Virus record (IMG/VR): IMGVR_UViG_2654587792_000035
Coordinates: 1-7,341 of that record
Source of the DNA: a virus
Lineage: Duplodnaviria; Heunggongvirae; Uroviricota; Caudoviricetes
DNA: 7,341 nt
Reading direction: 5' to 3' (one strand)
Positions 5,590 to 7,341 of the stretch are shown here, piece after piece. Both the position numbers and the translations under genes were made by a program. Each line of letters opens with the position of its first letter. Position 1 is the stretch's first letter. Below the pieces are notes generated by a model. The model made no database searches, was not told the origin of the DNA, and saw only the letters and a list, made by a program, of their open reading frames with translations.

Positions 5590-5686
5590 GTGAAGGGTTA
5601 AAACGCAAAAATTTTAATTTACTGCTGTGAGATAAAGCCTATGACAGCGAAGCACATAAAAAAAATCACAATCGCACGCCCTTGAT

Positions 5687-5887
5687 TTGACGGAACACTG
5701 GTTAAGGGTGTCGATAAAAATCATCGACCGCAACGCCGGGGAAGGATATGCGAAAGCACATCCCGAACTGATTAGCGCATTCATGACAACGGCAGCTGCA
5801 AACTTTGCCACGCTGACAGAACGGGAGATTGCCGAAGCGGAACAGGTGACAACCATCAACGTTAAAACCGGAGAGCAGACAGCATGA
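5687..5887 (+). CDS. Hypothetical small protein upstream of and coupled to ssb; start codon uncertain (TTG 5687, GTG 5708, or ATG 5641 in another frame via the A8 tract)
   Basis: Its stop TGA (5885-5887) overlaps the ssb ATG (5884) in an ATGA arrangement. Composition is plausible (Ala/Glu/Thr-rich) but no in-frame ATG with an RBS exists. An A8 run at 5658-5665 separates an ATG-initiated 14-codon ORF (5641-5685) from this frame. Confidence 0.3.
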   Translation: MTEHWLRVSIKIIDRNAGEGYAKAHPELISAFMTTAAANFATLTEREIAEAEQVTTINVKTGEQTA

Positions 5888-6306
5888 CAGCACAGATAGC
5901 GGCTTACGGGCGGCTGGTGGCTGACCCGCAGTTAAAGACCACCAGCAAGGGTACACAAATGACGATGGCGAGTATGGCGGTCCCACTTCCGTGCAGCCAG
6001 GCAGATGACGGAACGGCGACGATGTGGTTATCCGTCCTGGCGTTTGGCAGACAGGCCGAAGCACTGGCAAAGCACCGCAAGGGTGAACTCCTGAGCGTGG
6101 CGGGTAACATGCAGGTGAGCCAGTGGACCGGACAGAACGGGGAGACGCGGCAGGGCTGGCAGGTTATCGCAGACAGCGTAATCAGTGCGAGAACGGCGCG
6201 ACCGGGCGGCAAAAAAGGCCAACAGGGGCAGGCTACTGATGCACTGAGCAGAGCAAAACAACAGGCGGGAAATGATGATCCGTACGGGGATAACATACCG
6301 TTTTAA
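5884..6306 (+). CDS. ssb: Single-stranded DNA-binding protein homologue (140 aa), OB-fold with acidic C-terminal tip
   Basis: GGAGAG RBS about 10 nt upstream. Product aligns by eye with E. coli SSB across the OB fold (G.L..DP ... W..V..FG..AE ... KG ... WT.Q.G..R) and ends with DDPYGDNIPF, matching the conserved SSB C-terminal D-(D/N)-IPF tip. The linker is much shorter than in host SSB. Confidence 0.8.
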   Translation: MTAQIAAYGRLVADPQLKTTSKGTQMTMASMAVPLPCSQADDGTATMWLSVLAFGRQAEALAKHRKGELLSVAGNMQVSQWTGQNGETRQGWQVIADSVISARTARPGGKKGQQGQATDALSRAKQQAGNDDPYGDNIPF

Positions 6307-6321
6307 GCAACGAGTAACAGA

Positions 6322-6345
6322 AGCCGGAGCAATCCGGCTTTTTTA
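6322..6345 (+). terminator. Rho-independent terminator ending the rep-ori-ssb transcription unit
   Basis: Stem AGCCGGA / TCCGGCT (6322-6328 and 6333-6339), 4-nt loop GCAA, followed by a T-run to 6344; it begins 16 nt after the ssb stop. Confidence 0.8.
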
Positions 6346-6571
6346 TGGGTCCTCCCGGTGTAGTGACCTGCCACGGGGCGGGAGCGGCGCGGAAAAAGGC
6401 TAGTTTTTGCATTTTCATTCGTCATCATCATCTTTCTATAATGTTGAATTTTAAGTGTTTTTATTTTTGGTATGTTAATTTTGCTTGTTTTGTGTTCAAC
6501 ATACAGCGCGTTTTTTGACCTTTTTTAAAAGATATTTGCAAGATGCATTTTTAAAACATTCTGGAGCGGGT
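6346..6571. other. Candidate packaging-signal (cos-like) / late regulatory region: GC-rich block (6346-6392) followed by about 180 bp of AT-rich DNA with repeated ATTTTTAAAA motifs, immediately upstream of the Nu1-like gene
   Basis: The GC-rich block contains ACGGGGCGGGAGCGGCGCGG (GGGCGG-type motif reminiscent of lambdoid cosN). The spacing to the Nu1-like start (about 185 bp) resembles the lambda cosN-cosB-Nu1 layout. TATAAT at 6437-6442 lacks a good -35; ATTTTTAAAA occurs twice (about 6520-6530 and 6546-6556). The assignment is inferential. Confidence 0.3.
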
Positions 6572-7057
6572 ATGGATCGGGAACTGAAAAATCTGATGCT
6601 GAACATTAACCAGCTGGCGGCGATAGCGGGAATATGTCGCCAGACTGCGGCGGCAAGGCTGAAAAATATCCAGCCAGCCGGAGGACATGACAAGCTGAAA
6701 CTCTATCGGGTGACTGACATTCTGACTTGTTTTCTTGATCTTCCCGTTCCGGCATCACTGGAAGAAATGGAGCCACACGACCGTAAGGCCTGGTATCAGT
6801 CCGAACGTGAGCGCCTCAAGTTCGAACAGGAAACGGCGCAACTCATACCCGCCGATGATGTGCGAAAAGAGATGGCTATATGGGGAGAAATCGTAAGCGA
6901 GGAACTGGAAAAACTCCCCAGTATTCTGGCACGTGATGTTGGGCTTAAACCGATGGCAGTAAACAGAGTGCAGTCAATTATTGACGATTTGTGTAATCAG
7001 ATTATCAGCCGGATGGTAAAAAATGACGTAGTGAATGAGGTCGCAAAACAGGCATGA
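6572..7057 (+). CDS. Nu1-like terminase-small-subunit-type winged-HTH protein (161 aa); candidate packaging-specificity / redirection factor
   Basis: ATG at 6572 with GGAG 5 nt upstream; the track ORF start at 6485 was rejected. N-terminus LNINQLAAIAGICRQTAAARLKNIQPAGGHDKLKLYRVTDIL aligns by eye with lambda Nu1 VNKKQLADIFGASIRTIQNWQEQGMPVLRGGGKGNEVLYDSAAVI. No large terminase gene follows within the window. Confidence 0.65.
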   Translation: MDRELKNLMLNINQLAAIAGICRQTAAARLKNIQPAGGHDKLKLYRVTDILTCFLDLPVPASLEEMEPHDRKAWYQSERERLKFEQETAQLIPADDVRKEMAIWGEIVSEELEKLPSILARDVGLKPMAVNRVQSIIDDLCNQIISRMVKNDVVNEVAKQA

Positions 7058-7341
7058 TAATGACCGAATCTGAAATACTGCGATTAATCCGCTGTGCTGG
7101 TGGAATTAGCCAGTTGGCTGACGAACAGGCCGCGCAGCCGGATACAGTCACCGCTGAAAATTACGCGCGTGTGGTGGCTGAGGTGATGCGCCGTGACGGT
7201 ATTGAGCTTAACGGCGTGGATATGCGCAACATACGAACCAGAGTCCTTGAGTTGCTGGCATACCGTCGCCGTTCTCAACAACGGAGGGAGAGCGCGAAAA
7301 ATACTTATCAGTGGAAGAAGCCGGAATGGTTGCGGCGGTAA
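7054..7341 (+). CDS. Hypothetical protein (95 aa), translationally coupled to the Nu1-like gene; stop codon is the last triplet of the window
   Basis: ATGA overlap with the upstream stop (7054-7057). Product is Arg-rich at the C-terminus with no recognisable motif. An alternative start at the ATG at 7060 is possible. Confidence 0.55.
   Translation: MIMTESEILRLIRCAGGISQLADEQAAQPDTVTAENYARVVAEVMRRDGIELNGVDMRNIRTRVLELLAYRRRSQQRRESAKNTYQWKKPEWLRR

Follow-up and report, generated by a model that had tools for sequence, protein, structure and literature searches.

The replication module of a phage-inducible chromosomal island (PICI), in which a small gene of the family PHROG 1231 has been put out of frame while the ssb gene behind it is intact, is probably the right description of positions 5641-6306 of the window (the whole stretch of 7,341 nucleotides that was analysed, positions 1 to 7,341 of IMG/VR virus record IMGVR_UViG_2654587792_000035). 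The open reading frame (ORF) ahead of ssb, for which the original prediction had noted an ambiguous start, is on comparison with its relatives a frameshifted copy of an 81-aa gene and not an unusual gene structure.

Identity and layout of the island

By its gene content, the stretch is a small Gram-negative PICI-type satellite from E. coli. The int, alpA and pri-rep genes are co-oriented, and the island is small and without lysis or tail genes, as is typical of PICIs. The satellite setting that had been proposed is borne out, since the window has, besides its iteron origin, an integrase, AlpA and a primase-helicase of the D5 type. The features referred to below are as follows.

1-1239, integrase (annotated as tyrosine recombinase in identical relatives)
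about 1662-1868, AlpA (AlpA match, 3.6e-16)
2214-2519, minus strand, YlcI/YnfO-like gene (Pfam/NCBIfam/PHROG)
2627-2920 as the listed ORF, Icd-like gene (the RefSeq CDS of relatives is 2717-2920)
3240-3539, DUF4222 gene (Pfam/NCBIfam/PHROG)
3521-5353, plus strand, pri-rep primase-helicase (Pfam: D5_N 1.6e-13, Pox_D5 2.9e-12, DUF5906 1.4e-10)
5360-5600, no strand assigned, replication origin (iterons CTGTTCACC in both orientations flank AT-rich spacers)
5641-5685, plus strand, 5' fragment of the 81-codon gene (ATG 5641-5643; 14 codons, MTAKHIKKITIARP*; TGA 5683-5685)
5658-5665, plus strand, A8 homopolymer (one A more than the A7 of intact relatives; the frameshift site)
5687-5887, plus strand, 3' part of the 81-codon gene, codons 16-81 (+1 frame; 66 codons from TTG 5687 to TGA 5885-5887)
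5870-5873, plus strand, Shine-Dalgarno sequence GGAG for ssb (10 nt ahead of the ATG, read from the sequence)
5884-6306, plus strand, ssb (140 aa; OB fold about residues 1-103, conserved short linker 104-130, tip DDPYGDNIPF)
6319-6346, plus strand, intrinsic-terminator-like hairpin (GCCGG/CCGGC core, then T6), which closes the unit after ssb

The pri-rep gene, named 'DNA primase family protein' in the RefSeq entries of relatives, is the replication initiator of the island. It is followed in order by the iteron origin, the 81-codon PHROG 1231 gene, ssb and the terminator, and 5641-6306 is probably the distal end of this replication module. No RNA family was found by Rfam at the gathering threshold in the whole window, and the DUF1441 protein has no PDB match by sequence.

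The closest relatives are 99.5-99.9% identical over the window. In close relatives the island spans roughly 7-10 kb (about 7.3-9.9 kb) and lies between cspD/yljB and clpS. Of the relatives that have this architecture, NZ_AP027844 comes closest: in window positions 1-6386, one SNP and the extra A are all that sets it apart. The block of pri-rep, origin, small gene and ssb recurs in an island that lies inside a prophage terminase gene and in one capsid-forming PICI (NZ_CP074804). The region 5300-6400 has a match, in whole or in part, in about one third of the complete E. coli genomes.

Replication origin

Ten copies of CTGTTCACC, nine of them exact and one with a mismatch, lie within 5367-5589. 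Counted over the whole window, the iteron matches come to 13, where chance would give 1.5, and none of 200 shuffled sequences reaches 13. Origins of Gram-negative PICIs have been described with a pri-rep and iteron layout (PMC6092414), and the layout of the window agrees with that description. The small gene and ssb follow the iteron region, so that ssb does stand after the origin, as the original prediction had placed it.

In EcCICFT073, Pri-Rep and ori sufficed for the maintenance of a plasmid in DH5alpha (PMC6092414). Therefore, ssb and the small gene should not be strictly needed for replication. By this analogy, the satellite SSB would be an accessory to replication and not a requirement, and its contribution may be quantitative or otherwise. 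The question is thereby sharpened to what the satellite gains from an SSB of its own when Pri-Rep and ori suffice.

Anatomy of the upstream reading frame

In the sequence as well as in the ORF list, all features stand at the positions first reported for them: the ATG at 5641, the eight A at 5658-5665, the ORF of 66 codons with its TTG and the ATGA overlap with ssb. As read from the sequence, a weak Shine-Dalgarno-like GAG lies about 9 nt ahead of the ATG at 5641. In the alignment with intact relatives, codons 1-8 of the 5' fragment are authentic, after which the frame is lost and the fragment ends in the stop at 5683-5685, 1 nt before the TTG at 5687. From 5660, directly behind TAA 5657-5659, the +1 frame is free of stops; the earliest codon beyond that point that could serve as a start is TTG 5687, and this alone accounts for the listing of a 66-aa ORF. 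No Shine-Dalgarno sequence was read in front of this TTG. At its other end the frame stops at TGA 5885-5887, overlapping the ssb ATG at 5884-5886 to give ATGA.

Deleting one A from the run yields MTAKHIKKSQSHALDLTEHWLRV..., an ORF of 81 codons that is annotated in near-identical E. coli islands. The original prediction, in which a one-A deletion would fuse the two frames into a gene of 80 codons, is thus supported by the relatives as to the fusion and is to be corrected to 81 codons. In intact relatives, the gene is a CDS of 246 nt encoding 81 aa (WP_000125504.1, hypothetical in RefSeq), with an ATGA overlap with ssb. The best E. coli matches to a query of 1101 bases (5300-6400) have 1100 bases, the missing base being one A of the run. 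The comparison with homologues that had been suggested for settling the upstream gene structure therefore gives an answer: the ambiguous start belongs to a frameshift allele of a known gene.

The A8 run is the longest A run of the window. Runs of A7 or longer number five in the window against 4.1 expected, so that there is no enrichment and the A8 run is no statistical anomaly in itself; it is its location that matters.

The A run across relatives

A query of 66 bases centred on the A8 run found 423 complete E. coli genomes and had an exact match in none of them, while the A7 version of the same 66-base stretch is matched exactly in 71 genomes. The related loci that were fetched number 83 (three from the E. 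coli genome searches and 80 IMG/VR contigs). A7 together with an intact ORF is found in 70 of them, and in-frame variants in 11, examples being an A8 that a T-to-A substitution created and an A7-CC with GTG as the start. The remaining two loci (L003 and L074) share one and the same +1 frameshift, with A8 and a split ORF. On the whole, the long ORF is open in more than 95% of the relatives.

Frameshifts have also occurred elsewhere. NZ_CP074804 has an A8 on another allele (CAC-ACA instead of CAC-ATA), which represents an independent +1 event in one of the 423 complete genomes, and PGAP has annotated in it the equivalent 66-aa TTG ORF; a +1 frameshift on a different allele is carried by a complete genome and by an IMG/VR contig. 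At the equivalent A run of Lys codons, a -1 allele is present on dozens of contigs whose sources are named as E. albertii and E. coli, and in the E. albertii lineage with this allele ssb is degraded too. A third allele class carries an A6-to-A7 frameshift at the equivalent run. Including that of the window, there are at least four independent frameshifts at the run of the window or its equivalent, and one further relative, in which the 81-codon gene is annotated as a pseudogene, is frameshifted at a different place in that gene.

Since A7 is common, the allele of the window is private and the frameshifts are scattered, the run appears to be a hotspot of slippage or of sequencing error and not a conserved site of recoding. 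The split ORF and the slippery run are not conserved among homologues. Programmed recoding at the A8 run was considered and rejected: split forms are few and dispersed, and a ribosome slipping by -1 on A_AAA_AAA would end up in the wrong frame; a +1 shift would be needed for expression of the full-length protein from A8.

The 81-codon gene and PHROG 1231

Once repaired, the 81-aa protein has a profile match to PHROG 1231 of 6e-49, which covers residues 2-80 of 81. It has no match in Pfam or NCBIfam, and for distant members PHROG 1231 is likewise the only match. In a profile search of 1.84 billion cluster representatives, 785 relatives were found at E ≤ 0.001, mostly of 60-110 aa, and the core motif G-x-G-Y-A-K-x-H-P-E-L-I-x-A-F-M-x-T-A-A is common to these 785 representatives. 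The AlphaFold2 model of the protein is a two-helix hairpin with a mean pLDDT of 68; no significant fold match to it was found in the PDB (best E = 5.6).

The homologues begin with different N-termini (forms of 80, 81, 83, 85 and 92 aa), every one of which keeps the frame. Two residues ahead of TTG 5687, A13 and D15, are near-invariant, and when distant relatives are aligned, the conserved first helix likewise starts before the TTG position. Therefore, it appears that the N-terminal segment is translated in the homologues. Judged by these comparisons, the long 81-codon ORF is a real gene. TTG 5687 is unlikely as its true start, given the lack of a Shine-Dalgarno sequence and the conserved residues upstream. 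Many homologues nevertheless have an ATG, and hence Met, at the TTG position, within A-L-D-M-T-E-H.

Among 38 distinct 81-codon alleles, pN/pS is 0.92 for codons 1-15 against 0.16 for codons 16-81. The high value for codons 1-15 is due mainly to low synonymous divergence (pS 0.053 against 0.198). If constraint on these codons is indeed weak, as the ratio suggests, loss of the N-terminus may matter little.

The genomic setting of the family differs between close and distant loci. Across about 28 distant viral loci, a primase or helicase (Toprim + Zn-ribbon, DUF927, DUF5906, VapE, Prim-Pol, D5_N) often precedes the PHROG 1231 gene. What follows it is variable (antiterminator Q, a polymerase of family A, UDG, an exonuclease) and is an SSB in one of 27. 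In contrast, ssb follows the small gene in 81 of the 83 close loci, which are enterobacterial, and there the ATGA coupling is found. A universal pairing of PHROG 1231 with SSB was therefore rejected, SSB lying downstream in just that one distant locus. By its neighbourhoods, PHROG 1231 is a family of early or replication modules, with the tight pairing with ssb specific to enterobacterial satellites, in which the small gene is predicted to be translationally coupled to ssb by ATGA. The role of this widespread family, with its 785 representatives and typical place just downstream of a primase/helicase, is a second question that the present analysis sharpens.

The satellite SSB

The protein of 140 aa encoded at 5884-6306 and ending in DDPYGDNIPF was verified on the sequence, and its assignment to the SSB OB fold holds by several lines of evidence. 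In the HMM search it passes the curated cut-offs of PF00436 (58.6 bits against 26; 7.3e-16) and TIGR00621 (59.1 against 53.95), and its matches in the PDB by sequence are all SSBs. The AlphaFold2 model agrees with these matches; it has strands over residues 2-101, with pLDDT of 80-92 across most of the domain (block means 72-92), and a low-confidence tail with a short helix predicted at 117-127. The top 50 Foldseek matches in the PDB are all bacterial SSBs (E down to 5e-9, target-normalised TM up to 0.81, rmsd 2.6 A).

With E. coli SSB (178 aa) the satellite protein has the OB fold in common at an identity of 26%. W48, F54 and W81 align with W54, F60 and W88 of E. coli SSB and are invariant in the family, so that three of the four stacking aromatics are present. 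Equivalents of W40 and H55 are lacking: Cys stands in the place of W40, and His55 of the tetramer interface in E. coli corresponds to Leu49. About 35 residues follow the OB fold, compared with about 65 in E. coli SSB, which upholds the earlier statement that the linker is very short; the linker itself (about 25-35 residues, against about 56 in E. coli) is conserved and not rich in Gly, Pro or Gln.

The tip, DDPYGD-x-IPF in the family, ends in D-x-[IL]-P-F in about 110 of 120 homologues, and D136, P139 and F140 are invariant, E. coli SSB included. The tail had been called canonical and protein-recruiting. Alignment with the host sequence supports a tip of the IPF type, and near-canonical is the better term for it, because the canonical D-D-D-I-P-F is replaced by G-D-N-I-P-F. 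What the host tip (DFDDDIPF) and that of the satellite have in common is the terminal IPF, the Asp at position -5 and an aromatic residue at -7; in the satellite family, position -4 varies (N, G, D, E, S) and position -6 is Gly. Owing to the changes in the tip and at W40 and H55, the range of partners and the oligomeric state may differ from those of the host SSB.

The ssb gene of the window has zero differences from the copy in NZ_AP027844 (RefSeq WP_000126661.1, single-stranded DNA-binding protein). Its pN/pS is 0.08 overall, 0.06 in the tail and 0.09 in the OB fold. The gene is intact and, by these ratios, under strong purifying selection, with the tail constrained like the OB fold. Among 50,697 phage records, no close relative of the satellite SSB was found (identity at most 32%), and in plasmid records the identity is below 60% to nearly all SSBs, the few closer matches looking like the same satellite module. 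As far as these records reach, the lineage appears to be essentially confined to enterobacterial satellites.

Expression of ssb

No significant mRNA structure covers the Shine-Dalgarno sequence of ssb (z = +0.55). The hairpin after ssb has a fold energy of -18 kcal/mol (z = -3.75), and none of 200 shuffled sequences folds as well. A scan of 5300-6600 with consensus promoters and terminators found nothing, and this hairpin was not among its hits either. With a GGAG of its own, no occluding structure and a terminator behind it, ssb should be left expressed by the upstream frameshift, and it is probably still expressed in the island of the window.

Proposed mechanism and alternative explanations

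In the proposed mechanism, the island operon would be transcribed upon induction by the helper phage, and Pri-Rep would melt and unwind the origin. The island SSB, through its OB fold and presumably as a tetramer, would coat the exposed single-stranded DNA, and its IPF tip may recruit the host proteins that read SSB tips, adding to the pool of host SSB. The island would thus have its own supply of SSB during its replication and that of the helper. The extra A in the A7 run would leave, of the small gene, a stub of 14 codons and an out-of-frame 3' part seen as the TTG ORF. The frameshift itself is most probably either a homopolymer-slippage allele (null or hypomorphic) or a homopolymer error of assembly.

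That it is altogether an error of sequencing or assembly, the real island having A7 and an intact 81-codon gene as its relatives do, is a serious possibility, though it is given less than even weight. Indels in homopolymers are a well-known fault of several sequencing platforms; the extra A is private to the window, with no exact match to the 66-base stretch among the 423 complete genomes, and the flanking 6.4 kb are nearly identical to relatives, with a single SNP. Against this, real frameshifts do exist at the equivalent A run elsewhere, both the +1 on another allele and the -1 on dozens of contigs. That such events have arisen independently four or more times, the one of the window counted, and each time at an A run within the Lys-rich 5' end of the gene, could also be taken to indicate a switch. 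The level of full-length PHROG 1231 protein and, by coupling, that of SSB would then be controlled through programmed slippage in transcription, frameshifting by the ribosome or phase variation. RNA polymerase of E. coli does slip to some extent on runs of eight or more A, and the unusually low pS of codons 1-15 would fit such a function as well. A switch is nonetheless very unlikely, considering that the split form is rare (about two of the 83 close loci and one of the 423 complete genomes) and the in-frame A7 the commonest, that a -1 slip leads into the wrong frame where +1 is needed, that ssb has its own Shine-Dalgarno sequence, and that the E. albertii lineage with the -1 allele, given its degraded ssb, looks like decay and not regulation. 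It is also unlikely, if less so, that the 66-aa product is made, by a start at TTG 5687 or by reinitiation, and works, which would render the A8 allele near-silent. Bacterial ribosomes can reinitiate at nearby starts after termination, and the stop of the stub is only 1 nt away; the ATG of many homologues at exactly this place, the pN/pS of codons 1-15 and the calling of such ORFs by PGAP point the same way. The missing Shine-Dalgarno sequence, the near-invariant A13 and D15 with the start of the first helix upstream, and the long ORF kept open in nearly all relatives argue against it.

With regard to ssb, the preferred reading of a supply of SSB for the island has to be weighed against one in which the satellite SSB mainly interferes with the helper or host by titrating the proteins that bind SSB tips, or meets anti-phage defences that sense foreign SSBs. 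The finding that Pri-Rep and ori alone replicate a plasmid (PMC6092414) would be in keeping with interference, as would the altered tip, the short and strongly conserved linker (pN/pS 0.06) and a lineage so remote from the SSBs of sequenced phages. This reading is considered improbable, because in 81 of the 83 close loci ssb belongs to the replication module and comes directly behind the origin, and because the aromatics that bind single-stranded DNA are conserved. A more elaborate possibility, in which the A run of Lys codons would be a slippage-prone contingency site switching the small protein on and off from one island lineage to another, and the small protein and the SSB, with its altered tip and short conserved linker, would be a dedicated pair and steer a subset of the host SSB-interacting proteins to the island origin at the expense of the helper, is regarded as highly improbable.

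Comparison with known systems

The finding is an ordinary one in that both genes are already in RefSeq and SSB is already listed as a PICI replication gene: in a survey of Gram-negative and helper-embedded PICIs, Primase, SSB and DUF5906 form the replication category and are co-located with the origin (PMC10111431). A search of the literature found no experimental work on a PICI SSB, on PHROG 1231 or on the two RefSeq accessions beyond mention in catalogues. The value for annotation is that the 66-aa TTG ORF sometimes called by pipelines can be recognised as the tail of a frameshifted 81-codon gene.

Gram-negative PICIs (EcCICFT073, as well as helper-embedded and capsid-forming ones) are like the window in having int, alpA and pri-rep in one direction and an iteron origin directly 3' of pri-rep. 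The window copy differs from other PICIs in the frameshift of the small gene, and it likewise differs by this frameshift from PHROG 1231 genes elsewhere, with which it has the motif in common.

Conjugative plasmids and temperate phages (for example Pseudomonas phage F116 and Staphylococcus phages) also carry SSBs, which, like the satellite SSB, are extra mobile-element copies of 130-180 aa with an acidic tip; they are set apart from it by the low identities given above, for all phage and nearly all plasmid SSBs. Plasmid SSBs partly substitute for host SSB. Compared with its closest relatives, the window is without their 2.5-kb gene for a fusion of ClpP protease and capsid.

The small gene and ssb

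The 81-codon gene upstream of ssb belongs to PHROG 1231, a widespread family of uncharacterised small proteins with 785 cluster representatives (family proteins P0241-P0389; loci L084-L122). The core motif of the family is GxGYAKxHPELIxAFMxTAA, and the family has no Pfam model. Its genes usually lie directly 3' of primase or helicase genes, in both phages and satellites.

Among 38 alleles of the 81-codon gene, pS is 0.053 in codons 1-15 (window 5641-5685) versus 0.198 in the remainder, a four-fold drop in synonymous divergence at the start of the gene. The pN/pS of 0.92 in codons 1-15 reflects this low pS, which inflates the ratio.

The linker of the satellite SSB (residues 105-130, window 6196-6273; GGKKGQQGQATDALSRAKQQAG) is short and not Gly/Pro-rich. 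Typical SSB linkers are disordered. In contrast, this linker matches the OB fold in its degree of conservation, with a pN/pS of 0.06, and a helix is predicted within it at residues 117-127.

In one related lineage (L165-L168), which was found on dozens of contigs named E. albertii or E. coli, the small gene (at 1501-1701) carries a -1 frameshift at the equivalent A run, and ssb is disrupted by an internal deletion and a frameshift. Downstream are ProQ-like and PerC genes. It looks as if the small gene and ssb are decaying in this lineage as a whole pair.

The region downstream of ssb

A consensus terminator scan of 5300-6600 reported nothing. By folding, a hairpin of -18 kcal/mol (z = -3.75) followed by T6 is found at 6319-6346, directly 3' of ssb. 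Further 3' in the window is:

6569-7057: gene for a DUF1441 protein (Pfam, 2.3e-35)

In the closest relatives (e.g. NZ_CP101915), ssb and the DUF1441 gene are separated by a 2.5-kb segment that carries a gene for a fusion of a ClpP-like prohead protease and a major capsid protein. The window lacks this segment, the junction being 6306-6569, and the same short form is also present in the near-identical E. coli island NZ_AP027844. Because each end of the relatives' segment can be aligned with window 6339-6418, the deletion was probably mediated by an 80-bp direct repeat.

The DUF1441 protein matches PHROG 141, 'terminase small subunit' (3e-57), and a PDB sequence search with it gave no match. 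The position of its gene suggests that the product is a putative TerS-like or packaging-redirection protein.

In a related locus, L001 (NZ_CP031653, 1-13100), the same replication module (pri-rep, iteron origin, 81-codon gene and ssb) is part of an island that lies between a truncated gene for a phage terminase large subunit and a gene for a tail fibre. The arrangement is helper-embedded and resembles the one that PMC10111431 describes.
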